Positions 3,548 to 45,345 of a DNA stretch of 64,000 nucleotides are shown in pieces (the first letter of the stretch is position 1; every line of letters begins with the position of its first letter). This DNA comes from Candidatus Omnitrophota bacterium (GTDB lineage: Bacteria > Omnitrophota > Gorgyraeia > JAZDFF01), in NCBI GenBank assembly GCA_043808095.1, contig JAZDFF010000001.1:1628-65627 (forward strand), given 5' to 3'. The translations under genes and the position numbers were made by a program. The notes beneath the pieces are model-generated. The model saw nothing but the letters and a program-made list of their open reading frames with translations, searched no databases and was not told where the DNA came from.

Positions 3548-3881
3548 AAAAGAGCTATTATGATTGCTCAGAAAAAAAAGAAGATTACAAAGATGGATTT
3601 TTGTTTTGCTAATCTGTGTAATCATACTGAAAAATCTGTGTAATCGTTTTAAAATGAGATTAGATAAATTGACACATTCGACTTCGCTCAGTGTCAAACC
3701 TGCCTCCCTCGGGACCGAGCCCCTCTCGGAATGGTTCCTCGGGACGAGGTCGCACCGAGTGTTTGGAAAACAGATATGCTCGGCACGAGGTGAGCATGGC
3801 CGAAAGGTTTGACAAACAAATAATTTGTGCTAAAATTATACTTCTGCGTTTTAAAGTCAAGAGTTCTACCAAGGGACAAAC

Positions 3882-4619
3882 ATGGTAAGAATAGTTGATT
3901 ATGACCAAAGAAGAAGGCTGGTCCTTGCCGCAACTATAAATAGGTATATTAAAGAGGCTAATCCTATTTCTTCTCTAGACATTGCCAAGGATTTTGACCT
4001 GAGCCCGGCTACCATAAGGAATATCTTCGCGGATTTGGAAGAAGCCGGTTACTTAACCCATCCTTATACCTCAGGAGGCAGGATTCCTACCGGTAAAGGC
4101 TACCGTTATTACGTGGATTTTCTTATTTCTCAGATGGAGCTCTTAGAAGGCGAGAAATATAAGATTCTTCGCCAATATCAGGATCAGGCTAATCAATTAG
4201 AGGAGATTCTGGATAAGACCTCGGATTTGATTGCCCAGGTTACGCATTATGCCGGCATCGCCTCATTTTTAGACAGGCAGGACAAATTTTCTTATAGAGG
4301 TATAAGTTTCGTCCTAAATCAGCCGGAGTTTCAAGATTTCCGGCGGGTACGTTTTTTAATCAACCTCATTGAAGATAAGCAACAGTTGCTTAATATCATT
4401 AACCGGGATTTTTCACAGAAGACCAGAGTTTATATCGGTCAGGAATTGGACTATCCTGAGATGGAAAGTTATTCTCTGGTGGTTTCAAGTTTTGGCTCAA
4501 AAAAAAGGCCCTTGGGAAGACTGGCGGTCTTAGGCCCGATGCGCATGGAATATAATCATATCATTCCGGCGCTGGAATATATTTCAAACGCGCTCTCGGA
4601 TGTAATCGAGGATTTTTAA
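3882..4619 (+). CDS. hrcA: Heat-inducible transcription repressor HrcA (short form, 245 aa)
   Basis: N-terminal winged helix (ISSLDIAKDFDLSPATIRNIFADLEEAGYLTHPYTSGGRIPTGKGYRYYVD) and C-terminal LGPMRMEY motif. It is about 100 aa shorter than typical HrcA. Confidence 0.85.
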   Translation: MVRIVDYDQRRRLVLAATINRYIKEANPISSLDIAKDFDLSPATIRNIFADLEEAGYLTHPYTSGGRIPTGKGYRYYVDFLISQMELLEGEKYKILRQYQDQANQLEEILDKTSDLIAQVTHYAGIASFLDRQDKFSYRGISFVLNQPEFQDFRRVRFLINLIEDKQQLLNIINRDFSQKTRVYIGQELDYPEMESYSLVVSSFGSKKRPLGRLAVLGPMRMEYNHIIPALEYISNALSDVIEDF

Positions 4620-4632
4620 CCCCCCTTTAAAT

Positions 4633-5217
4633 ATGCTTAATAATAAACCGGATTCAAAAAAAGAAGAAAAAAACACCGAGCCCCTGGCTAAAAAAGAAGA
4701 GCAGGTGGTTACACTTGGTGAGTCCGAGTACGTGAAATTAAAGGAGGAGGCGGATAAATCCAAAGAATATTGGGATAAAATCTTGAGGCTTCAGGCGGAT
4801 TTTGACAATATGCGTAAGCGCCAGGAAAAAGAAAGACAGGATTTTATCAAATTTGCCAATGAGGATATTATTCTGGAATTACTTAATGTCCTGGATGATC
4901 TTGAGCGCACGGTTTGTCTGGCGCAGTCTAAACACCAGGATTTGTCGGCATTCTTAAAAGGGGTTGAGATGATTCTGGCGCACCTTTATGACCTATTAAA
5001 AAAATACGGAGTAAAACCCATTGAGGCCGAAGGGAAAATCTTCAACCCGCATTTTCATGAGGCGCTGATGCAGGTTGAGGATAAAAATGTGCCCGAGCAT
5101 ACTATAGTCGAAGAATTACAAAAAGGTTATTTATTGAATGAGAAGGTAATCAGGTTTTCTAAGGTAAGGGTTTCGACTTTAAAGAGAACAGAAGAGAGAA
5201 AGGAAGAAAAAACATAA
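4633..5217 (+). CDS. grpE: Nucleotide exchange factor GrpE
   Basis: GrpE-like coiled-coil region plus C-terminal domain (FDNMRKRQEKE...GKIFNPHFHEALMQVE); sits between hrcA and dnaK. Confidence 0.85.
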   Translation: MLNNKPDSKKEEKNTEPLAKKEEQVVTLGESEYVKLKEEADKSKEYWDKILRLQADFDNMRKRQEKERQDFIKFANEDIILELLNVLDDLERTVCLAQSKHQDLSAFLKGVEMILAHLYDLLKKYGVKPIEAEGKIFNPHFHEALMQVEDKNVPEHTIVEELQKGYLLNEKVIRFSKVRVSTLKRTEERKEEKT

Positions 5218-5315
5218 AGGAGTATCTGGGATGTCCCTCGCCCCTTAATTTGAGCGAAGGGGGGGGCTCGGGATCAAATTCATCTAGCTTCGCTCGATAA
5301 ATTCGAGAGGTTAAA

Positions 5316-7250
5316 ATGGCAAAGATAATCGGAATTGACTTAGGAACTTCAAACTCTGCAGCTGCGGTTATGGAAGGCGGACGTCCTGTAATTATTCCGT
5401 CTGCTGAAGGAGCAGGCGTGGCTTCAGGCAAGGCATTCCCTTCATACGTGGCTTTTACCAAAGACGGCCAGCGTCTCGTAGGTGAACCGGCAAGAAGACA
5501 AGCTGCCATAAACCCTGAAGGGACGATTCAGGCAGCCAAACGCAAGATGGGCACTGACTTTAAATTTAAGCCCTTTGGTAAAGAATATACTCCGCAGCAG
5601 ATTTCTGCGTTTATCTTACAGAAGATAAAGCAGGATGCCGAAGGTTATCTTGGCGATAAGGTTGAAGAGGCGGTTATTACCTGTCCTGCTTATTTTGATG
5701 ATAATCAGAGGACGGCTACCAAAGACGCCGGAGAGATTGCCGGTTTAAAAGTTTTACGTATTATCAATGAACCCACTGCTGCCTGTCTTGCCTACGGACT
5801 TGAAAAGGCGGGTAAGGAATTAAAGATCCTGGTTTTTGATTTTGGCGGCGGTACACTCGATGTCACCATTATGGAGATGTGGAAAGAAGGCGGTTTCAAG
5901 GTTATGGCCACGAGCGGCGATACCCAGCTTGGCGGAACCGATATGGATAATACCTTAATCGATTATATTGCCAAGGAGTTTAAACGCGAGACCGGCATTG
6001 ACCTAAAGAATGACAAGATGGCCATACAGCGACTTCGCGAGGCCGCAGAAAAAGCCAAGGTTGAGCTTTCAAGCACGCTTACTACGGATATCAATCTTCC
6101 TTTTATTACCGCGGATGCCACCGGCCCCAAGCATTTGACCATGAGTATCAACCGGGCAAAGCTGGAAGAGTTAATCAGCCCGATAATCGAAAGATGTCGC
6201 GGCCCGCTTGAGCAGGCCTTAAAGGATGCCAAAGAGGCATTCAAAAAAGAAGGCGTGGATTTTTCCGATAAAGGAGTGGATAGGATTATCATGGTCGGCG
6301 GCCCCACCCGGATGCCGGTAGTACAAAAATTCGTCGAGGATTATTTTGGCAAAAAGATCGAGCGCGGAGTCGATCCCATGGAATGCGTGGCCATGGGCGC
6401 TGCAATTCAGGCCGCGATTATTAAGGGCGATGTGAAGGATGTATTATTACTGGATGTTACGCCGCTTTCTTTGGGAATCGAAACCTTAGGGAGAGTCAAT
6501 ACCAGATTAATCGACAGAAATACCACTATCCCCACGAGAAAAAGTCAGATATTTTCGACAGCAGCAGATAACCAGACTGCGGTAACAGTGCGGGTTTTAC
6601 AGGGAGAGCGCCCTATGGCAGATGACAACGTGGAGCTCGGGCGTTTTGATTTAGTCGGCATACCTGCTGCGCCGCGCGGTGTGCCCCAGGTAGAAGTTTC
6701 TTTTGATATCGATGCCAATGGTATCGTGCATGTCGCAGCCAAGGACTTAGGCACGGGCAAAGAGCAATCCATCCGTATCACCGCACCTAAGAAACTTTCA
6801 AAAGAAGAGATTGATAAGATGGTTAGAGACGCGGAAAAATTCGCCTCTGAGGATTCCAAGAAAAAAGAAGAAGTCGAGGCGATTAACCAGGCAGATAACC
6901 TTGTTTATGCCACGGAAAAATCGCTTAAGGACTTCGGAGATAAGGTCAGTCAAGGCGAGCGCGCTGACATCGAGTCAAAGCTCAATGACCTGAAGACTGC
7001 AATAAAAGATAAAAACGTCGACAGGATTAAACGCGCCTCAGAAGAATTAACTAAGGCTTCGCATAAACTGGCGGAAGAGATTTACAAACAGGCAGCAGCC
7101 AAACAAAAAGGCCAATCTCAGGGCCCGGATGCCGGGCCTGGGCAGGAAGGACCCGAAGGTGAAAAGTCCGCAAAAGGCGGATCCGCTTCCGGCGGAAGAA
7201 AAGACGAAGACATCATTGACGCGGAATATAAGGAAGAAGACGGAAAATAG
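5316..7250 (+). CDS. dnaK: Chaperone DnaK (Hsp70)
   Basis: [10 protein letters not shown] and DLGGGTFDV-type motifs; full-length Hsp70. Confidence 0.97.
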
Positions 7251-10822: not shown

Positions 10823-10962
10823 ATTTAATCCTGGAAATTCTACGAATTTCTCAGGACAAACAATATACAATGCCGAATACTGAAATTATGAACAAAATGT
10901 TTTGGTTATTGCCTGCCTGCCGGCAGACAGGGAAACCAGAAAAAATAAAAATCTGGTTACTG

Positions 10963-11036
10963 TCCCGAATGTTGTTACTATATTAGTTATTCTTCGGGAT
11001 CCCGAAGCGATACCATAGTAGTTACTACATTCGGGA
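10963..11036. repeat. MITE-like palindromic element: TIR TCCCGAATG...CATTCGGGA with central CTTCGGGATCCCGAAG
   Basis: One of five copies (10963, 29818 composite, 30846, 37328, 45256); the whole unit can fold as a hairpin. Confidence 0.6.
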
Positions 11037-11077
11037 TAAACTGTTTTCTGGTTACTCCCGAGCGAAGCGAGGGGAAC

Positions 11078-24158: not shown

Positions 24159-25012
24159 TTACCGGCTCAACCGGAATGCTGGGCAGCGACCTCTGCCAGG
24201 AATCTTCTTTAGATTACCAGGTTTTTTGTTTAGCAAAACCAATTCAAGAAACAGAGAATTGTTTCTGCGCTGACATCGCTGATAGGGATGCAATAAGAGA
24301 TATATTCCGCAGAATTCATCCGGATATAATAATTCATACCGCAGCCTTCAGCAATGTGGATGGCTGCGAGTTGAATCCGGACCTGGCCCTTAAGATAAAC
24401 GCTGAGGGGACAGGAAATTTGGCACATTACTCAAAGGAAATAGACGCGGTATTTGTTTATATCGGCACGGACTATGTATTTTCCGGCAATAATAATAAGC
24501 CTTATAAGGAGGATGATGATGCTTCGCCGGTAAACGTATATGGAAAGACAAAACTTCTGGGAGAAGAAATAGTAAAAGGCCAGTTAAAAAGATATTTTAT
24601 TGTCCGTACCTCGTGGTTGTTCGGTAGGGGCAGGAAAAATTTCGTAGATATGGTGCTTGAAAAAGCAAAGACCGGCAGTGTTATTAAAATCGTAAGCGAC
24701 AAAGTTAGTTCACCAACGTATACGAAGGATCTAAGTTTAGCCATTTTAAACCTTATCAATAAAGACCATTATGGCATTTTTCATATCGCAAATCAGGGAA
24801 GTTGTTCCTGGTTTGACTGGGCGGCTAAAATTTTGGAATACGCAAAGTTAGACGCTACAAAGTTGTCTCCTATTAGTTTAAAAGAACTGAACCTGGCGGC
24901 AAAACGTCCCCTTATGACGTCGCTTGATATATCCAAATTTGTCAAAGTAACCGGATATCCTATGCGTTCTTGGCAGGACGCCCTGGGAGAATTTATATGT
25001 TCGAAAAACTAA
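24131..25012 (+). CDS. rmlD: dTDP-4-dehydrorhamnose reductase
   Basis: VLITGSTGMLGSDL and YGKTK motifs; ~290 aa RmlD architecture. Confidence 0.85.
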   Translation: MVAKTKKVLITGSTGMLGSDLCQESSLDYQVFCLAKPIQETENCFCADIADRDAIRDIFRRIHPDIIIHTAAFSNVDGCELNPDLALKINAEGTGNLAHYSKEIDAVFVYIGTDYVFSGNNNKPYKEDDDASPVNVYGKTKLLGEEIVKGQLKRYFIVRTSWLFGRGRKNFVDMVLEKAKTGSVIKIVSDKVSSPTYTKDLSLAILNLINKDHYGIFHIANQGSCSWFDWAAKILEYAKLDATKLSPISLKELNLAAKRPLMTSLDISKFVKVTGYPMRSWQDALGEFICSKN

Positions 25013-29810: not shown

Positions 29811-30150
29811 ATGATTATCCCGAATGATGTTATTCTTTGTAGTGTCTCTTCGGGATCCCGTTCCGAATATAGCAAATGCTTTTGTATAGTTTCGGGATCC
29901 CGACGATTCGCTTCTATGAATACCTTCATTCGGGAAAGAATAACCTAAAAAGTTACTACATTCGGGACAGTGATAGAACCATATTTAATGTCCAATATCC
30001 AATAAATACCAATAATACCAATGAATGTCCAATTGCCAATTGGATAGTTGGGATTTGGGATTTTATTGGCACTTCGACTTTGCTCAGTGCCAATGGTGAG
30101 CATAGTCGAACCATTGGAGTTTGGTAGTTATTGGTAAATATTGGGATTTA
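29811..30150. repeat. Left direct repeat flanking the pilin/PilX-like locus: a composite of two MITE-like units plus a CCAAT/ATTGG-word palindrome
   Basis: 29811-29860 is identical to 37321-37380, and 29977-30062 is identical to 37430-37524. The left copy carries an extra 46-bp insert (30062-30108) from the 'acttcgactttgctcag' repeat family. Confidence 0.7.
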
Positions 30151-30287
30151 AAGAGTCATTGGGACATTGTCCCGCGTAGCGGGATTCCGCTTTCGTTTTA
30201 ATTAGATAGGCGGGAAAGAATTAGGAATTTATTCGGCATTAGTCATTAGGAATTCAACATTAACTTTTATTTTAAGAGGTGTGATAA

Positions 30288-30791: not shown

Positions 30792-30845
30792 TAATATAAA
30801 TGATAAATTTCCAATATCCAATAATACCAATGAATGTCCAATTTC

Positions 30846-30921
30846 TCCCGAATACAGTTACCCAAAGAAGTTATGCTTCGGGATCCCGAAGTTATACTTC
30901 GCAGAGATACTACATTCGGGA
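30846..30921. repeat. MITE-like palindromic element (copy)
   Basis: TCCCGAATA...GCTTCGGGATCCCGAAGT...CATTCGGGA. Confidence 0.6.
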
Positions 30922-31014
30922 CAATGACCAATTAGATAATTGAGATTTGGGATTTCATTGGGATTTGGTAGTTATTGGTAATTATTGGGATTTAAGTGTA
31001 AAGGGGTTGTCCAA

Positions 31015-31623
31015 ATGAGAAAAGGGTTTACCTTAATTGAGGCGGTCATTGTGATATTTATCTTAGGGATTGTAGTTGCGGGTCTTATTCCTATCCTTTT
31101 CAAGGGCATTGAAATATCTACTTCTGGGATGTCTAGCCAAGAAGACTTAGCCAAAGCCAGGATTGCGCTGGAGAGGATGGTTAGTGAGATAAGGGATTCA
31201 GAATGTATTTGTTCCTGTCTTTGCTCGGGCGGTTCTTGTAATAGCAGTCTTATGTATATTCCAACTTCTAAAGATAAAAGAATTTATTTCGCGACACCAA
31301 GCGCTGACCCTAAAAATAAGATATTAAGAAACGTCTATACTATTACCAGCCCTGATCCCACAACTTGCGTAACACTTTGTAATTCCTCTTGGAATTCAAC
31401 TGCTACATCTTCGCAGGCACTCATTGATTCTCTTGCCTCAATGAGTCCTGGTAATACCTGTATTAGTTGTAGGGCATTTAACGAGAATGGAGTTGAACAA
31501 ACCTCTTATTTGGGCGTTATTAATAACAGCCGTTTATTAAAAATTAAATTTATCTTACATAAGAAATCCGGCGGAGAACTTCCCTTTGAGACACAGGTGG
31601 TGTTGAGGAAGAGGGTACCATAA
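31015..31623 (+). CDS. Type IV pilin/pseudopilin-like protein
   Basis: MRKGFTLIEAVIVIFILGIV prepilin motif; Cys-rich C-terminus. Start at ATG 31015 with an upstream AAAGGGG. Confidence 0.7.
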   Translation: MRKGFTLIEAVIVIFILGIVVAGLIPILFKGIEISTSGMSSQEDLAKARIALERMVSEIRDSECICSCLCSGGSCNSSLMYIPTSKDKRIYFATPSADPKNKILRNVYTITSPDPTTCVTLCNSSWNSTATSSQALIDSLASMSPGNTCISCRAFNENGVEQTSYLGVINNSRLLKIKFILHKKSGGELPFETQVVLRKRVP

Positions 31624-31698
31624 GGAATGAACGTCCAATATCCAATAAATACCAATAATACCAATGAATTTCCAATGACCAATAACCAATAAATACCA

Positions 31699-32052
31699 AT
31701 GGCCAAGGAATATGATATCAAAGACAGGACTTTTAGTTTTGCACAAAGGGTTTTAGAAATAGTAGGTATGTTGCCCAAGATAGTAGAATGCGATGTAATT
31801 CGTAAACAACTTACTGAGGCAGGGACTTCCGTAGGCGCAAACGTTGAAGAAGCAGACGGTGCCTTAAGCAAAAAGGATTTTATAAATAAGATGGGTATAG
31901 CCAGAAGAGAGGCTAAAGAGAGCAGATATTGGTTGAGGCTTATTTCAGGAAAGTATATTAATGAGGAGAAGATTGCCAAAGATATAATTGAAGCAAATGA
32001 ACTCAAAAATATCTTAAGTTCAATTATTGAGAATACTAATAAATCCAAATAA
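31699..32052 (+). CDS. Four-helix-bundle protein of the 23S rRNA-intervening-sequence / Avd family
   Basis: 117 aa. The pattern LxxxGxxxxxxE...SxxDFxxKxxIARREAKESRYWLRL matches this family, to which the DGR accessory protein Avd belongs. Confidence 0.6.
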   Translation: MAKEYDIKDRTFSFAQRVLEIVGMLPKIVECDVIRKQLTEAGTSVGANVEEADGALSKKDFINKMGIARREAKESRYWLRLISGKYINEEKIAKDIIEANELKNILSSIIENTNKSK

Positions 32053-32131
32053 TGGCTTATAAATTGGAAATTGGTATTTGGGATTTTATTGGAGGTTGGT
32101 ATTTATTGGTAATTATTGGGATTTAAAGAGT

Positions 32132-33766
32132 ATGAATCTTTTCACCAACAAGACTGGTTTTGCCTTATTTATCTCTATCTTCATCATCCTGGCTTTCTCA
32201 ACCATAGCGCTTCTTTGCTTTAATCTTCTGACTGTCCAGGACGATGCCGCCATCCGCAATCTCTATTCCATAAGGGCCTATTACCTGGCAGAGGCAGCCA
32301 GACAGCTTTGGTTAGAATACTATGTGCCTTGGGGGAGTGATTTTTGCAATGACGGCTCTGATGAAAAGCCAAACGAATTCCCTGATAATATTACCCGTAC
32401 CATAAACGGCGGAACACTTAATATTCATTATGTAGCTAGACAAGCACCTGAGCAGGCTACCACTGTGCAATTTTCCGGTTCGGTCCCTTTAAGTGGTCAG
32501 CAAATCAGCCGCAGCTTTACCCAGGATTTTTCTTTTCCCTTGGGTTCAGCTGCCTTTAATCTCAGGAGGGATTTGCAGAATTTTGTGTTGGCTACCTTTA
32601 ATGCTGGTTCAAGTAGTTGTTTTTATCTGGGAGGTGATACCGGACTTAGCGGGCAGAGCCTTCCACTATATTTCTTTGCTAAGGCGTGTAGTGATTGTGC
32701 TGGGTCACAATGCAACGAAGAATCCGACCCTCAGTATATTTTTCGTAGTTTTGGGAATGTCTATATGGGAAATTTTGATGTAGTACTTAGAATTGCACAG
32801 ATTGGAGATTCATCTAATCAGCGAAACCTTTATATGAATATACCCAGCGGTTCTAAAAAATTACATATATTTGAATGTTCAAGAATAAATGGCAATCTTT
32901 ATCGTCGCAATACTGACTTAAATTGTTTCCCAATTATTAATTCCGGTTGGCAGGGTATGTGCTATGTTTACCAGCTCGCAGGGGGGCCTTGTCCTAGCTG
33001 TAACAGTTGTTGTAAAGATTCCAATTGCGATTCTTCTTGTTTCGTTTCTGACGCTGGCTGGCCAGCTTCACCACCACAACCTATCCCCAGCAAACCCGTT
33101 ATTGATAATAGTTATTTCAATCAGGAGCTTAAAATTGCATTTCAGAGCGGAAGCACTTCTGGTTCTCCCCTTTCTGGTGACTTAGGAAAGAGGAATCGCT
33201 ATTTTAATCTGGCTAATTTGAATATTGATGGTGATATCAGCGGCGGGCCTGCTAATATTGTAACTACGGGCAGGATACTTATTGCTGATAATGTGAAGAT
33301 AGGCGAGAAAATAACTCTTATATGCGGGGATGATGTTTCCAATACTGACCCAAATGAAGAATATATTTATTTAGGCTCAGATAACGTAATAGGCGGCACC
33401 TATTCTGGCGGCCAGATTTCAGGCGGAGGAAGCCTTATATATAGTCGTAATGACAGTACTAGCCTTACATACGCTCCGCTTTATATTCCTGACGGTGCAA
33501 GGATAAAGGCAAGCATATTATCGCCAGGATTAGTGTGGATAAATAGCCAGGATAGTTGGAATATCTGGGGCACAGTTTATTCTGGAAGCGTTATATCAAT
33601 CACAGGAGGTCAGGGAGAACTTCGTGGTAGGATTTTTAGCGACGCCCCTGCACCGGATCCTTCAAAAGATGGGCCCTTTAATATGACCCTTTATGAAGAA
33701 TCAAATCTTCCTTTAAGGCTTAAAGGCCTTTATAATATCTCCACCAGCAACTGGCGGGAGCAGTAG
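32132..33766 (+). CDS. PilX-like large secreted protein, paralog 1 (pilin-type N-terminal anchor, Cys-rich variable body)
   Basis: N-terminus KTGFALFISIFIILAFSTIALLCFNLL is a PilX_N-like helix. C-terminus ...RLKGLYNISTSNWREQ is shared with the paralogs at 33951 and 35679. Confidence 0.65.
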   Translation: MNLFTNKTGFALFISIFIILAFSTIALLCFNLLTVQDDAAIRNLYSIRAYYLAEAARQLWLEYYVPWGSDFCNDGSDEKPNEFPDNITRTINGGTLNIHYVARQAPEQATTVQFSGSVPLSGQQISRSFTQDFSFPLGSAAFNLRRDLQNFVLATFNAGSSSCFYLGGDTGLSGQSLPLYFFAKACSDCAGSQCNEESDPQYIFRSFGNVYMGNFDVVLRIAQIGDSSNQRNLYMNIPSGSKKLHIFECSRINGNLYRRNTDLNCFPIINSGWQGMCYVYQLAGGPCPSCNSCCKDSNCDSSCFVSDAGWPASPPQPIPSKPVIDNSYFNQELKIAFQSGSTSGSPLSGDLGKRNRYFNLANLNIDGDISGGPANIVTTGRILIADNVKIGEKITLICGDDVSNTDPNEEYIYLGSDNVIGGTYSGGQISGGGSLIYSRNDSTSLTYAPLYIPDGARIKASILSPGLVWINSQDSWNIWGTVYSGSVISITGGQGELRGRIFSDAPAPDPSKDGPFNMTLYEESNLPLRLKGLYNISTSNWREQ

Positions 33767-33950
33767 AAAAGGATTGGGACAATTAAGTAGTAGTTTCGTC
33801 TTAAAAGGTTATAGGGTTGCGGTTACGTATCGTATGAAAAGTTATCGTTGGTCGTTTATCGTATAAATACGACAGACAAAACTGATACACGATGGACGAT
33901 ACGTGTCCGAGGCCGAAACCGATAAAACGTCAGACAAGGTTTTATTAATC

Positions 33951-35501
33951 ATGCATCTACCTATCAATAAAAGTGGCTTTGCTCTTTTTATCTCTATCTT
34001 CATCATCCTGGCATTTTCCACCATCGCCCTGCTTTGCTTTAATCTTTTAACTGTCCAGGACGATGCCGCTATCCGCAATCTCTACTCCATCCGTGCCTAT
34101 TACCTGGCAGAGGCAGCCAGGCAGCTGTGGTTAGAATACTATCCAAGCTGGGGAAATGATTTTACCAACACGACCCAGTTTCCCGATGGCACCACCCGCA
34201 CTTTAAATGGCGGACAATTTAGTTTCAGCTATATCAGTCGCAACAGCCGTTTGGCCAGCTTGAACTTTACCGGAAGCATCCCCCTGGGCACAACTACGGT
34301 TACCAAAGGTTTTAGGCAGGATTTTAGCGATTCATCCTCAGCGCTCTTTAGAGACTTAAATAATTTTGTCTTAGGGGTGTTTAATGATGATGAGGTCTAT
34401 GCCTTGGGTGGGGATAATCCTGCAGAAGGACGTTATTATTATACATACGGTTGCGCATGCGCACAAGGCTGTAGCACGACACTTAATCAAAGATACATCT
34501 TTCGTGCATTTGGTAATGTTTATCTCGATGGCCCTTCGTCTTCTCCTAATGGGAGACATCTATTTAAGTTAGGCGAGATTGGTTATCCTAATGATCCTAG
34601 TAAACCCAGAGAGCTCTATATAACAGGTAAAGGAATAGGTTCGGGGGTGCTTATTAGTGAATGTACAAGGATATACGGTAATCTTAGGATAACTAATGCC
34701 TACCTTCATCATCATCAACTTGAATCAGGTGGTTTTAGTAAGTGTAGATTAAATGTAGTTAGCAGTTCACCTTATTATTGTGTAAATCCTCTAGATCCCC
34801 CTAATGTTTGTGATGGTAGTTGCTATAGTGGTGCTGCTGGCACTTTACCTCAACCCGCAAAACCCGATATAAACACCTATTTTACGCAAGAACTGCAATT
34901 GGCCCAAAATTGTTCCAGCGGTGGTTATTGCTGGAATGGCAATGGTATTGCTGGTCCAACAACTTTAACTAAAAATGTTTATTATAGCGGCTCTGATGAT
35001 TTTTATTTAACGGGAGATATTAACGTCATTTTTCCGATAAATATCGTTATTAACTTAACCAATGCAACTAAATCAGTAAGGATCCAATCTGGAGCCAAGG
35101 TTTCAGGAAAGATAACCATTATCTCTTCTGGTAAGATTGTTACATATGGTGATGAAATAAGGGTCGGCGATATAAATTTAACCTGCCCTAGCTCTCTTAT
35201 TTATTCACATTCAGATGCTAATCCTGCCATAGAAATCAATGCCTCTCCTGAAATCAAGGCAAATATCTTATCTCGGGGTTCGGTTGATTTAGCAGAACAA
35301 CAGACTCCCAAGATTTGGGGCACAATCTATGCCTGGGAGATTGATGCCTATCAAGCTGGTCAGGCCAATATCTATGGCCCAGTATTCGTTGACCAGACAG
35401 AAATAGATAAACCCCTTAATCTTACCTTAAACGAGGCCCCGCTTTCCTTTAGAATCAGGGGCCTGTATAATATAGCCTCCAGCAACTGGCAGGAGCAGTA
35501 G
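33951..35501 (+). CDS. PilX-like large secreted protein, paralog 2
   Basis: Same N-terminal ~65 aa and C-terminal GLYNIASSNWQEQ as paralog 1; the middle is unrelated. Confidence 0.65.
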   Translation: MHLPINKSGFALFISIFIILAFSTIALLCFNLLTVQDDAAIRNLYSIRAYYLAEAARQLWLEYYPSWGNDFTNTTQFPDGTTRTLNGGQFSFSYISRNSRLASLNFTGSIPLGTTTVTKGFRQDFSDSSSALFRDLNNFVLGVFNDDEVYALGGDNPAEGRYYYTYGCACAQGCSTTLNQRYIFRAFGNVYLDGPSSSPNGRHLFKLGEIGYPNDPSKPRELYITGKGIGSGVLISECTRIYGNLRITNAYLHHHQLESGGFSKCRLNVVSSSPYYCVNPLDPPNVCDGSCYSGAAGTLPQPAKPDINTYFTQELQLAQNCSSGGYCWNGNGIAGPTTLTKNVYYSGSDDFYLTGDINVIFPINIVINLTNATKSVRIQSGAKVSGKITIISSGKIVTYGDEIRVGDINLTCPSSLIYSHSDANPAIEINASPEIKANILSRGSVDLAEQQTPKIWGTIYAWEIDAYQAGQANIYGPVFVDQTEIDKPLNLTLNEAPLSFRIRGLYNIASSNWQEQ

Positions 35502-35678
35502 AAAATGATTGTAGAGATTATAAATCAAAATGCAAAATTCAGGTTTAGGGGTTAGTAGGATTAAGTAGGGAGTAGTAAGGGTAAGAAAGGGATAAATTAT
35601 AAAAACCCATCCTAACCCCTTCTAACCCTTTCTATCCCTTCCTAACCCTTAAATCTTTGATTTTTATCTTACAAAAGT

Positions 35679-37295
35679 ATGAATCTATCCACTCACAAAG
35701 GTTTTGCCTTATTTATCTCTATCTTCATCATCCTGGCATTTTCAACCATTGCCTTACTTTGTTTTAATCTCTTGACGGTCCAGGATGATGCAGCCATCCG
35801 TAATCTCTACTCCATCCGTGCATATTACCTGGCAGAGGCAGCCAGGCAACTCTGGTTGGAATACTATGCACCCTGGGGCGCAGATTTTACTATTAGTAGT
35901 CAATTCCCTTCAGTAACCAAGACCTTAGCAGTAAATCAATTCAGTATCAATTATTCTCCTTATGGCCAGGATGCCGGCCCACTTACTCAGCAGAGAAAAG
36001 CTCGAGTCCATTTTCAAGGAATAATTCTATCTATCCCTATCACTAGAACATTTTTTCTGGACATAGATGCTGAACCCAAGACTGCCTTAACCAGGACCTG
36101 CGCCTCTGACAAAAGAGACTGTCTGAGCGGTGATTTAAAGAATTTTGTTTTGAATTATAATGGCAGTTCTGATCTCAACTTGGCAGGAACATTAGATTAT
36201 TGTTGTTGTACTGGTTTTAATGGTAGTAGTTGTTGTGGTACTTATGGTTGTCCTTTTGGAGATTGTGTTGGTTATCCGCCTTTTAGAGGCCCTGTCGTCA
36301 CTGGGGATGTCTATTCGAATAGAAATGTTTATTTCAAATCCGGAGAGATTAACGGAAATCTTTATAGCAGTTCCAATATTCAGGTCCGTGAATGTGCAAG
36401 GATAATAAATGGTTCGGTATATCACGGCGGAGCGCTTAATTGTTGTCGTGTTTCTGGGTTAGTCCCGCCTCTTGTTTCTTGTAAATGTGATAATAGTTAT
36501 ACCTGTAACAATTATTGCTGCGGCGGTGGCCCTTGTCTAACTGATGGTGGCGCTTCCGGCCCTAAGCCGGCTCCTTCAAAGCCAGCGATTGATACTACAT
36601 ATTTTGATAAACAGATTGAGTGTGCCCAAACTTATGGCGAAGTGCCATCTGGTGGGACTAAAACTATCTCTAGTGATGTGAATTTAGGAACTACAGGAGA
36701 TATCTATGTTAATGGAAAGATAGTCATTAACTGCACCGGTGACTGCACCGGTGGGAGTACAAATATCTCTACTACTGGTAGGTCGTGTAATATAGTGGCT
36801 ACTGGTGATATTGAGGTCACGAGGTCACATATTTCTGAGCGGATAAACCTAATCAGTGGAGGCAGGATTTTGACGAATGGCGATCCAACCTATGGTCCAA
36901 CAGTAATCGGCGGTGATTATTCTGCCGGCCCTCCTGAGCAGGTCACGGGCGTGGGTTGTCTTCTCTATGCACGGGCACAAACCAATCCTATAGCAATTAT
37001 TAGAGATTCTATGGTTAAGGCAAGAATATTGACACCAGCATCGGGTTCAGTAAGCATAATAAGCGGAAGTAATGACTGCGCAGGAAAGATCTGGGGTATA
37101 GTCTATACAAAGACCACTGATCTATCGGATACACGTAAATGTCCGAGTATTGTTGGCAGTATATTTACAGACAGTCTCTCTTCAACAATGCAATTTGGAC
37201 CTACCGAAGATGGTACTGGCAATTCCAATCTTTTTCTTCCTCTGAGGCTTAGAGGCCTTTATAATATCTCTACCAACAACTGGCAGGAGCAGTGA
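35679..37295 (+). CDS. PilX-like large secreted protein, paralog 3
   Basis: Same N- and C-terminal modules as paralogs 1 and 2; very Cys-rich variable middle (CCCTGFNGSSCCGTYGCPFGDC...). Confidence 0.65.
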   Translation: MNLSTHKGFALFISIFIILAFSTIALLCFNLLTVQDDAAIRNLYSIRAYYLAEAARQLWLEYYAPWGADFTISSQFPSVTKTLAVNQFSINYSPYGQDAGPLTQQRKARVHFQGIILSIPITRTFFLDIDAEPKTALTRTCASDKRDCLSGDLKNFVLNYNGSSDLNLAGTLDYCCCTGFNGSSCCGTYGCPFGDCVGYPPFRGPVVTGDVYSNRNVYFKSGEINGNLYSSSNIQVRECARIINGSVYHGGALNCCRVSGLVPPLVSCKCDNSYTCNNYCCGGGPCLTDGGASGPKPAPSKPAIDTTYFDKQIECAQTYGEVPSGGTKTISSDVNLGTTGDIYVNGKIVINCTGDCTGGSTNISTTGRSCNIVATGDIEVTRSHISERINLISGGRILTNGDPTYGPTVIGGDYSAGPPEQVTGVGCLLYARAQTNPIAIIRDSMVKARILTPASGSVSIISGSNDCAGKIWGIVYTKTTDLSDTRKCPSIVGSIFTDSLSSTMQFGPTEDGTGNSNLFLPLRLRGLYNISTNNWQEQ

Positions 37296-37320: not shown

Positions 37321-37570
37321 ATGATTATCCCGAATGATGTTATTCTTTGTAGTGTCTCTTCGGGATCCCGATGTAATTCTTAAGAAGTTACTACATTCGG
37401 GACAGCGATAAAAGATACGATTACAGCAAGAGAACCATATTTAATATCCAATGTCCAATATCCAATAAATACCAATAATACCAATGAATGTCCAATTGCC
37501 AATTGGATAGTTGGGATTTGGAGAATTTATTGGAGTTTGGTATTTATTGGTAATTATTGGGATTTAAAGA
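37321..37570. repeat. Right direct repeat flanking the pilin/PilX-like locus
   Basis: See the 29811-30150 entry; ends in the ...GGGATTTAAAGAGT-ATG junction that also precedes paralog 1. Confidence 0.7.
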
Positions 37571-37572
37571 GT

Positions 37573-37650
37573 ATGAATCTTTTCACCAACAAGACTGGTT
37601 TTGCCCTTTTTATCTCTATCTTCATCATCCCGGTCTTTTTGGTTATCGCT
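37573..37650 (+). pseudogene. Truncated fourth copy of the PilX-like N-terminal module (promoter-proximal fragment or silent cassette)
   Basis: ATGAATCTTTTCACCAACAAGACTGGTTTTGCC... is nearly identical to the 5' end of paralog 1 (32132). Homology is lost after ~25 codons; the frame runs into the trpB start. Confidence 0.5.
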
Positions 37651-37712
37651 TTGTTCTCTCCGAGAATGAATAAATTGACAGTTCGTCAGATTATCTTTAT
37701 AATAAACCCATT

Positions 37713-38900
37713 ATGACAAAAAAATTACCCGATCATCACGGATATTTCGGTCAGTTCGGGGGGAAGTTTGTGCCTGAGACCCTGATGTATGCGCTCTCTG
37801 AATTAGGGGAGGCTTATAAGGCAGTTAGAAAAGACCCCGCCTTTAGGAGAGAACTAAGATATTATCTTCAGATTTACGCCGGAAGGCCAACACCTTTGTA
37901 TCCTGCCAGGAATTTAAGCAGATATTTAGGAAATCTAAAGGTCTGTCTAAAACGCGAAGACCTTCTGCATACCGGGGCCCATAAAATAAATAATGCCTTA
38001 GGTCAGGTGCTTTTAGCCCGGCGGATGAAAAAGACGCGCATTATTGCCGAGACCGGCGCCGGCCAGCACGGCGTTGCCACTGCCACAGTAGCGGCCTTGT
38101 TTGGCCTGGAGTGCGACATCTATATGGGGCTTGAAGATATCAAAAGACAGCACCAAAATGTCTTCAGGATGAAACTTCTGGGTGCGAGAGTTATCCCCGT
38201 TGATAGCGGCTCTAAGACTTTAAAAGATGCCTGTTCAGAGGCAATCCGGGATTGGGTGACTAATGTCAAGGATACCTATTATCTTATCGGTTCGGTTATC
38301 GGGCCGCATCCTTATCCGGTAATGGTGCGCGATTTTCAGACGGTGATCGGCGAGGAATCCAGAAGACAGATACTGGAGTTAGAGGCCAGGCTTCCTGATT
38401 ATCTAGTAGCCTGTGTCGGAGGCGGAAGTAATGCCATGGGTTTATTTTACCCTTTCTTTAAGGATAAAAAGGTGAAATTTATCGGGGTGGAGGCGGCAGG
38501 AAAAGGCCTCACTAGCGGTCTTCATTCGGCGAGTTTGGTTAAGGGAAGGATCGGGGTCTTACACGGCAGCAAGAGTTCGCTTCTACAGGATAAATACGGC
38601 CAGGTAAATATTGCCCATTCTATTGCCGCTGGCCTTGATTATCCTGGGGTGGGGCCGGAACATACCTATTATAAAAAGATAAAGCGAGCCGAATATGTAG
38701 CCGTAGGCGATCGGCAGGCCTTAGAGGGCCTGAGGCTCTTATCAGAAACTGAGGGAATCATCCCGGCCTTGGAGCCAAGCCATGCCATTTATTATTTAAA
38801 AATCTTAGCCAAGAAAATTAAGACCAGGGCCCTGGTTATTCTTTGTTTGTCAGGCAGAGGGGACAAAGACCTGGATATCGTTATGAAACATGGTTGCTAA
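37713..38900 (+). CDS. trpB: Tryptophan synthase beta chain
   Basis: [18 protein letters not shown] (PLP lysine), GSNAMG. Confidence 0.95.
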
Positions 38901-42631: not shown

Positions 42632-43007
42632 GCTTCATAACTAAAATAAAAAATAAATTATAGGGCGTCATAAAAATTCCGCCCTTGATTGCAGAGGTTA
42701 CAAAATCTGATTATGCGGATTTCCGCCTTTGGCGAAAAATATTCCGAAGAAACAATCTTTGTAATCATTAGGCTAAAACGATACTTCGACTTTGTCCTGC
42801 TTCGACAGGCTCAGTATTCGCCCTGAGCGAGCGAAATCCCTCGACTGCGCTCGGGATGGTTCGAGGGGTGGTGAGCCCTTCGATTACGCTCAGGGCAAAT
42901 GGTGAGCAAAGTCGAACCAGAGCAAGTCGAACCACGAGTCGAAAGGCTCAGTATTCGTCCTGAGTGAAATCGAAGGACGAATTTTATGACAGCCTAAATA
43001 AATTATT

Positions 43008-45175: not shown

Positions 45176-45255
45176 TATATGAATCACGAATAAACACAAA
45201 TTTCACACTAATTAACACGAATATTAAAATTTACAAATTCGTGTCTATTCGTGTG

Positions 45256-45329
45256 TCCCGAATGAAGCAATTGATTGTGTTTAGCTTCGGGATCCCGAAG
45301 TGATTCTTAAGAAGTCACTACATTCGGGA
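45256..45329. repeat. MITE-like palindromic element (copy), upstream of recJ
   Basis: TCCCGAATG...CTTCGGGATCCCGAAG...CATTCGGGA. Confidence 0.6.
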
Positions 45330-45345
45330 TAATTCGTGAGAATTA

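Follow-up and report, generated by a model that had tools for sequence, protein, structure and literature searches.

The 64,000-nucleotide stretch of Candidatus Omnitrophota DNA analysed here (positions 1,628 to 65,627 of contig JAZDFF010000001.1, assembly GCA_043808095.1; called the window below) was found to contain a gene for a four-helix-bundle protein at 31699..32052 on the + strand, and this gene was found to lie in the loop of a long hairpin whose arms recur elsewhere in the window. The locus is probably a hairpin cassette of the type known from the intervening sequences (IVSs) of 23S rRNA, residing in the spacer of a messenger RNA instead of in a 23S rRNA. Within this Omnitrophota lineage the hairpin exists in multiple copies, most of them empty and a few filled with the gene, and it occupies the spacers between co-directional genes. 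The placement of the gene inside a repeated hairpin was overlooked in the original prediction, which had been made from the sequence of the window, and it is the feature that best explains the location of the gene.

The left arm of the gene-bearing hairpin (31624..31698, + strand) was found to be A/C-rich and to contain (CCAAT)n units up to the ATG of the gene (repeat families D3, D6 and D7, inverted pairs I11, I17 and I25 of the window). The right arm (32053..32131, + strand; repeat family D2) was found to contain (ATTGG)n and GGGATTT repeats and to end in ...ATTATTGGGATTTAAAGAGT directly before the ATG at 32132. The two arms, of 75 nt on the 5′ side of the ATG and 79 nt on the 3′ side of the stop codon, were mutually complementary. 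An exact 24-mer of the left arm occurred three times in the window and a 31-mer of the right arm four times, against an expectation of zero for each. The predicted RNA fold of 31610-32140 contained a long stem that encloses the entire open reading frame (ORF) including its ATG (z -4.2), and the flank-to-flank inverted-repeat score of the gene was 25.5 against 11.3 for shuffled flanks. No Shine-Dalgarno-like GGAG, GAGG or AGGA was found within 20 nt on the 5′ side of the ATG.

The hairpin was found between two host genes on the same strand. The upstream one (31015..31623, + strand) encodes a pilin-like protein with an N-terminal methylation motif (Pfam N_methyl, 30 bits), and its stop codon lies 76 nt before the ATG of the four-helix-bundle gene; the protein is named 'type II secretion system protein' at NCBI and no other homologue of it was found. 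The downstream one (32132..33766, + strand) is the first of three large lineage-specific paralogues of 532-544 aa, and its ATG lies 80 nt beyond the end of the four-helix-bundle ORF. No promoter-like or terminator-like site was found on the + strand between 31623 and 32132, which is compatible with read-through from the upstream gene and is not proof of it. An outward promoter was likewise absent from the right arm, as no sigma-70-like site was found on the + strand of any arm and promoter-like sites were fewer than in shuffles. The Rfam scan of the window returned no family, rRNA included.

The ORF of 117 aa, with an ATG start, was present directly upstream of the large paralogues as the original prediction had described it, and its proposed membership in the 23S-rRNA-IVS/four-helix-bundle family was borne out by a hidden Markov model search. 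The product matched PF05635 (23S_rRNA_IVP) with 69.4 bits (cut-off 33.8) over profile positions 2-105 of 106, and TIGR02436 (four helix bundle protein) with 82.5 bits (cut-off 24) from end to end; it was the only copy of the PF05635 family in the window. In a word-indexed search 2900 homologues passed E<=1e-3, and a 100% identical entry, MFH1201293.1 ('four helix bundle protein'), was found on a 159,674-bp contig of a Candidatus Omnitrophota metagenome-assembled genome (MAG). Another protein, MFH1202322.1, was 91% identical and is encoded on a 170-kb contig, its accession number about 1000 away from that of MFH1201293.1; it may be a second copy within the same MAG. PADLOC gave no match, and PHROGs gave one weak, meaningless match.

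The AlphaFold (AF2) model of the protein, built from 31 sequences, had a pLDDT of 94.2 and contained helices at residues 7-22, 29-53, 58-82 and 89-115. The best structural matches found with Foldseek were BT_0352 of Bacteroides thetaiotaomicron (PDB 2RLD; template-modelling score, TM, 0.82-0.89) and Xcc0516 of Xanthomonas campestris (PDB 2GSC; TM about 0.83), followed by Avd, the accessory protein of diversity-generating retroelements (DGRs). A profile made of the window protein and 30 relatives retrieved 2RLD at E 8.6e-29 with 38-40% identity and Xcc0516 at E 0.06. Judged by sequence, the family of the window protein is that of the IVS or "S23p" proteins represented by PDB 2RLD. BT_0352 and Xcc0516, its closest solved relatives, are stand-alone members of the 'S23 ribosomal protein family', and to our knowledge nothing is known of their function. 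The window protein was found to be basic (pI 8.6; family median 9.4), and dN/dS of its gene against close relatives was 0.05-0.24, so the protein is kept by purifying selection.

Three further copies of the hairpin, all without the gene or any other ORF, were found on the + strand of the window, and the arms of the four copies were 91-97% identical. The copy at 37440..37572 was clean and contained no ORF; its RNA fold had an energy of -49.4 kcal/mol (z -6.1; none of 200 shuffles was as stable), its arms were 95% identical to those of the gene-bearing copy, and its right arm also ended in ...ATTATTGGGATTTAAAGAGT directly 5′ of the ATG of the next ORF. The copy at 29977..30156 (copy A), with arms 94-97% identical to the other copies, was found to contain a nested insertion of 43 nt (30070-30112) between duplicated ATTGG. 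The copy at 30796..30995 (copy B) contained a different palindrome (TCCCGAA...TTCGGGA, 30843-30925) nested at its apex. All four hairpins were found within the spacers of an 8-kb pilin-like locus, and none was found in the other 56 kb.

The 43-nt insertion sits within the right arm of its hairpin, starts with CACTTCGAC and finishes with GTCGAACC. Its relatives were found as a 45-nt stretch at 42875-42919 and as a longer version at about 447-552 of locus L011, which occupies the equivalent place of a hairpin in another Omnitrophota MAG and also lies between two ATTGG. The ATTGG on both sides of the insertion looks like a 5-bp target duplication, and the insertion itself looks like a tiny miniature inverted-repeat transposable element (MITE) that targets hairpin arms. 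The second palindrome family, TCCCGAA...TTCGGGATCCCGAA...TTCGGGA, is intergenic and was found at 10954-11043, 29818-29935, 30843-30925, 37325-37404 and 45251-45333 of the window; one CCAAT hairpin contains a member nested at its apex, and the gene-bearing hairpin of locus L001 contains another nested in its right arm.

The same hairpin family was also found in other Omnitrophota genomes. A scan of genome contigs with an exact 19-mer of the right arm gave four Omnitrophota loci together with many chance matches. Empty hairpins were found in other Omnitrophota MAGs at L006, L008 and L011, and the right arm alone at L025, each of the four sitting just 5′ of an unrelated ORF. The gene with its arms was found between porin (Alginate_exp) and GH57 genes at L001, L113 and L117, and between two permease genes of an ABC transporter operon at L115, with full CCAAT/ATTGG arms at L113, L115 and L117. 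The proteins of the porin/GH57 context (P0003, P0005 and P0007) were 78-88% identical to the window protein, and that of the ABC context (P0012) was 73% identical. The gene and its arms are thus present in at least three unrelated gene neighbourhoods.

The window arms were 92% identical to those of L113 and 86% identical to those of L115, whereas the synonymous sites of the gene differed with proportions (pS) of 0.63 and 0.77, respectively; the arm sequence itself is therefore constrained, and not merely its ability to pair. Such conservation, far beyond that of synonymous sites, is also what would be expected if the hairpins were a domesticated module, that is, host elements of intercistronic control which act on the processing, stability or translation of the downstream gene, with the four-helix-bundle protein as a trans-acting RNA-binding regulator of all of them, including the pilin-like and paralogue copies. 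Such a role accords with the right arm, which ends about 3-7 nt before the next ATG (the usual place of a Shine-Dalgarno sequence) in most Omnitrophota copies read, with the fold, which pairs the ATG of the next gene into the base of the stem, with the clustering of the four window copies in the pilin-like locus, and with a protein that is basic and under purifying selection. However, the same hairpin precedes unrelated genes in other genomes and is thus not specific to one regulon, larger gaps to the next start codon were found at copy A (about 136 nt), copy B (19 nt) and L006 and L011 (about 21-22 nt), and other repeats were found inserted within the hairpin, as would sooner be expected of selfish DNA. 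Domestication is considered an unlikely account of the locus, one that overlaps with the cassette explanation and does not exclude it.

The association of gene and hairpin was found to extend to metagenomic relatives of the window gene. A metagenome scan with the protein alignment gave 80 loci of 44-80% identity, and in the 68 genes that had 120 nt of flanking sequence at either end (including the window, L001 and L002) the upstream flank was aligned to the reverse complement of the downstream flank, with 236 other ORFs of at least 150 aa from the same loci as controls. The 68 genes are those closest to the query, so the result applies to this clade and not to all PF05635 proteins or to true Avds. 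The median inverted-repeat score was 19.25 for the four-helix-bundle genes and 9.5 for the control ORFs (Mann-Whitney p 1e-19; mean of shuffled flanks 10.5). A score of at least 15 was reached by 66% of the genes and 5.9% of the controls, and a score of at least 20 by 49% and 4.2%, respectively. In the loci scoring at least 20, the median gap between the inner arm end and the coding sequence was about 17 nt at the start codon and about 21 nt at the stop codon. The raw RNAduplex energies of the flank pairs did not separate the two groups (median -60.9 for the genes and -56.7 for the control ORFs) and were therefore replaced by the local inverted-repeat alignment score, which was checked against shuffles and control ORFs.

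The arms of the relatives were found to be built of short tandem units that differ between genomes and share one common theme. The arms contained (AACTCC)n and (GGAGTT)n units in L110, (ATGACCA)n and (TGGTCAT)n units in L077, (CAATGAA)n units in L073, AAATCCCAAAT and ATTTGGGATTT in L049 and L037, (CAAACTT)n and (AAGTTTG)n units in L111, and (TTTGTAAA)n and (TTTACAAA)n units in the phage contig L112. At least four periodic CAA units were found upstream in 41% of the loci against 2% of control flanks, and periodic TTG units downstream in 54% against 2%. No conserved 23S motif was found in any related locus, and none of the 20 loci whose repeats were strongest gave an rRNA match with Rfam. The upstream neighbour was co-directional in 46 of 51 loci and the downstream neighbour in 36 of 54.

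The GC-rich metagenomic contig L111 was found to contain one family of AT-rich hairpins in five spacers between co-directional housekeeping genes (605-716, 1393-1478, 2705-2791, 3860-3960 and 5194-5275), and its four-helix-bundle gene (3995-4348) has a complete hairpin on one side and an additional right arm on the other. This contig repeats the pattern of the window independently. The scan of viral contigs gave a single relative, on the 38-kb contig L112, which was 40% identical and was hairpin-flanked too. At 4860-5375 of this contig the gene, antiparallel to the phage structural genes, has a near-perfect inverted repeat on both sides; the repeat unit recurs in a neighbouring spacer at about 4380-4410. 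The domain '23S rRNA IVP' is listed among CRISPR-array-linked domains in the figure legend of a large CRISPR-discovery screen (PMC10910872). Tandem-repeat arms such as those of the window might be mistaken for short arrays by repeat finders, which may explain that link.

The question of whether the arms pair as RNA or as DNA was considered next to a DNA-level account, by which the arms would be the terminal inverted repeats of a non-autonomous transposon (a MITE or mobile insertion cassette) moved by a transposase encoded elsewhere, with the four-helix-bundle gene a mere passenger and RNA structure irrelevant. Of 33 strong loci, 23 had sense arms with a more stable fold than the antisense arms (median difference -4.1 kcal/mol, p 0.003), the window arms having values of -77.2 for sense and -63.1 for antisense. 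The count of G.T against A.C mismatches in the arms, under scoring that treats both kinds of transition mismatch alike, was 79 against 55 (p 0.047; 23 loci against 9), and two U.G wobbles were conserved in 7-8 of the 8 Omnitrophota copies. The orientation of the A/C-rich arm is of no use as a test of strand because a palindrome keeps that polarity on reverse complementation. The evidence weakly favours pairing in the sense-strand RNA and is not decisive.

The terminal inverted repeats, the many copies, the empty and filled versions and the several genomic contexts would all be expected of such a transposon, and the 43-nt insertion flanked by duplicated ATTGG suggests that small mobile DNAs are active in the lineage. 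However, no target-site duplication was recognisable at the hairpin ends, and the scanned ORFs of the window contained no transposase domain. Different tandem-unit arms accompany the same protein family across distant genomes, which is hard to square with an arbitrary passenger, and the strong co-direction with the upstream gene and the slight excess of G.U pairs also speak against it; the transposon account is thus rated as distinctly improbable. The hairpins resemble intergenic palindromes of the REP/BIME type and MITEs as multi-copy imperfect palindromes which lie in spacers between co-directional genes and are prone to nesting. They differ in that some members of the window family carry a conserved protein gene at the apex and in that the association of the protein family with tandem-repeat arms recurs in unrelated genomes, and no RAYT (Y1) or other transposase was found among the scanned window ORFs.

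The closest known counterpart of the locus was found in the IVSs of 23S rRNA, of which those with an S23p/IVP ORF are known from Leptospira, Coxiella burnetii, Brucella and Haemophilus (PMC4990558). In the Coxiella IVS the terminal repeats form a 28-bp stem that RNase III cuts, and its loop contains the S23p ORF, which has a poor Shine-Dalgarno sequence and is preceded by tandem heptamers; IVSs in general have been suggested as possible remnants of transposition (PMC4990558). The window cassette was found to share with them the PF05635 protein, the position of the ORF in the loop of a terminal-inverted-repeat stem, the poor or absent Shine-Dalgarno sequence, the short tandem repeats that precede the start codon, which are heptamers in Coxiella and CCAAT units in the window, and the coexistence of short versions without the ORF. 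An IVS in the classical sense is inserted in helix 25 or 45 of a 23S rRNA gene, whereas the window copy lies in the spacer of a protein-coding operon and has no Rfam match. The window arms are about 65-75 nt long and made of tandem units against 28 bp in Coxiella, and purifying selection acts on the window ORF, in contrast to that of Coxiella, which is reported to be decaying. Excision by RNase III, which has been shown for IVSs, would apply to the window cassette by inference.

An IVS-type cassette at this locus would lack its own promoter and depend on read-through transcription of the pilin-like operon. Its arms would pair in the RNA; this pairing would bury the start codon of the four-helix-bundle gene, for which no Shine-Dalgarno sequence was found, and would reach to within a few bases of the next start codon. 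The long duplex would be a substrate of RNase III, as experimentally shown for 23S IVS stems, and RNase III could then clip the cassette out of the polycistronic RNA with the host cistrons spared; insertion between cistrons would thereby be tolerable, as it is in rRNA helices. The basic and presumably pentameric protein may bind the RNA with its own repeat arms, by analogy with Avd, a pentamer of positive charge which in the DGR ribonucleoprotein binds RNA stem-loops that lie beside its gene (bioRxiv 10.1101/2023.10.23.563531). Since the window protein is basic like Avd, binding to its own arms would be the simplest inference. Xcc0516 is a homopentameric toroid (cited in PMC4990558).

Several observations weigh against the cassette explanation. 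About one third of the metagenomic relatives had no clear flanking repeat, and at L001 the right arm was kept with a left arm of only about 19 nt. No orthologous empty site was found, the upstream pilin-like protein and the paralogues having no homologues outside the contig, and no target-site duplication was recognisable at the ends of the hairpins, so that mobility is suggested by the distribution of the copies alone. The strand-asymmetry tests for RNA over DNA were weak (p 0.003 to 0.05). Among the 8 Omnitrophota hairpins a compensatory change was found in 1 of 37 pairs, a test that is uninformative because the Omnitrophota arms, 86-97% identical, are too conserved. Co-transcription, pairing of the RNA in vivo, cutting by RNase III, binding of the arms by the protein and the spread of copies are steps that we infer, and the search for a reverse transcriptase (RT), described below, covers 64 kb of a contig of 160 kb.

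The original prediction had named the gene an orphan Avd-like homologue of a DGR accessory gene. An orphan Avd would work with a DGR reverse transcriptase encoded elsewhere in the genome and possibly diversify the adjacent paralogues. The fold of the window protein resembles that of Avd (PDB 4DWL, 8UB7; TM 0.76-0.80), and the two share a basic charge and, broadly, the same Pfam family; PF05635 is the Pfam family most often found beside DGR reverse transcriptases (PMC10053308), and the window excludes about 96 kb of its contig together with the remainder of the MAG. However, the resemblance was found at the level of fold only. The identity of Avd to the window protein in the structural search was 17-19%, and the Avd of Bordetella (4DWL) was not retrieved by the 31-sequence profile even at E<=1.

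No RT was found by Pfam in 39 of the about 45 + strand ORFs of at least 100 aa in the window, the scan being confined to that strand with minus-strand ORFs not scanned. The scanned ORFs were found to be of housekeeping, sugar-nucleotide, pilin-like, helicase, protease and similar kinds, five of them without any match. The six + strand ORFs outside the scan (starting at 5316, of 644 aa, and at 24970, 26358, 27272, 37713 and 38999) were read by eye as a DnaK-like protein (5316), with the rest sugar-nucleotide enzymes and TrpB/TrpA. The prediction was thus upheld, for the ORFs scanned, in stating that the window has no RT, but its statement that no YxDD motif occurs does not hold literally, as [YF]xDD strings were found, for example AYFDD in the ORF 5316-7250 (DnaK by eye). 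Among 435 stop-to-stop ORFs of at least 180 aa in 74 related loci, nine contained [YF]xDD and none of these was an RT by Pfam, the other ORFs not having been scanned; eight of the nine were housekeeping enzymes and one had no Pfam match, and the annotated neighbours were housekeeping genes.

When the window was aligned to itself by BLASTN, the mismatches of no repeat pair were concentrated at adenines, in agreement with the predicted lack of an adenine-specific pair of variable and template repeats, and the mismatches between the paralogues were evenly spread over the bases. The description of the paralogues as wholesale divergent was fair, since past their near-identical first 65 residues they were 37-48% identical with indels; such divergence runs over the whole length and is not confined to a C-terminal variable region, and in no respect do the paralogues look like targets of a DGR. 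No template or variable repeat was found near the window gene, and no RT among the ORFs scanned there or among those tested beside its close relatives. Relatives of 73-88% identity were moreover found in different surroundings, either those of the porin and GH57 genes or the interval that separates two ABC permease genes. The family, the position and the absence of an RT and of an adenine-biased pair from the window thus stand from the earlier interpretation, and its orphan-DGR part does not, being regarded here as very improbable. A PF05635 match without a reverse transcriptase should not be taken for a degenerate DGR.

The three large paralogues were found at 32132-33766, 33951-35501 and 35679-37295 on the + strand. 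Their first residues, about 65 in number, were nearly identical and the remainder contained many indels; the DNA of their 5′ ends (32132-32330, 33951-34150 and 35679-35875) was 81-86% identical. The near-identical N-terminus, a membrane-anchor region, suggests gene conversion or strong constraint. No Pfam match and no homologue outside their own contig, where NCBI names them 'hypothetical protein', was found, and the label 'PilX-like' given to them in the original prediction is therefore without database support. The place of the four-helix-bundle gene beside the three paralogues is probably incidental. A truncated N-terminal remnant of a fourth paralogue, of 47 codons, was found after the empty hairpin, at 37573-37716 on the + strand. 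A perfect sigma-70 consensus (TTGACA, 17 nt, TATAAT) lies within this remnant at 37675-37703, 10 nt before the start of trpB at 37713. The spacers between the paralogues (33790-33900 and 35540-35650) contained other hairpins that are unrelated to the CCAAT family, in one of which a G-rich run of GGGTTAG/GGGTAAG-like units pairs with tandem TAACCCT-like 10-nt repeats.

Taken alone the gene is ordinary, as thousands of its kind are annotated 'four helix bundle protein' without known function, and the PF05635-type domain was still termed uncharacterised in a paper of 2024 (PMC11270868). Its importance lies in its context, the conserved hairpin that encloses it here and in most close relatives examined, with copies lacking the gene close by. 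No description of hairpin-embedded PF05635 genes outside rRNA was found in open-access papers and bioRxiv, which is not proof of novelty. Read in this way, the locus extends the IVS architecture from rRNA to mRNA and ties an uncharacterised family to a specific nucleic-acid partner. It is possible, though this is put forward tentatively, that PF05635 proteins and tandem-repeat-armed hairpins are the two parts of a single widespread system, the classical 23S rRNA IVS being only its best-known habitat. If so, the pentamer would recognise the CAA/UUG-type units that recur periodically in its own arms, in a manner similar to the reading of spaced triplets by TRAP. All hairpins of the family in a genome would then have their processing, translation or copying controlled by the protein, and the empty hairpins would be non-autonomous derivatives. 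Avd would then be a version of this RNA-hairpin binder that was recruited by a reverse transcriptase, and the 30-year-old question of the role of the IVS protein would become directly testable.

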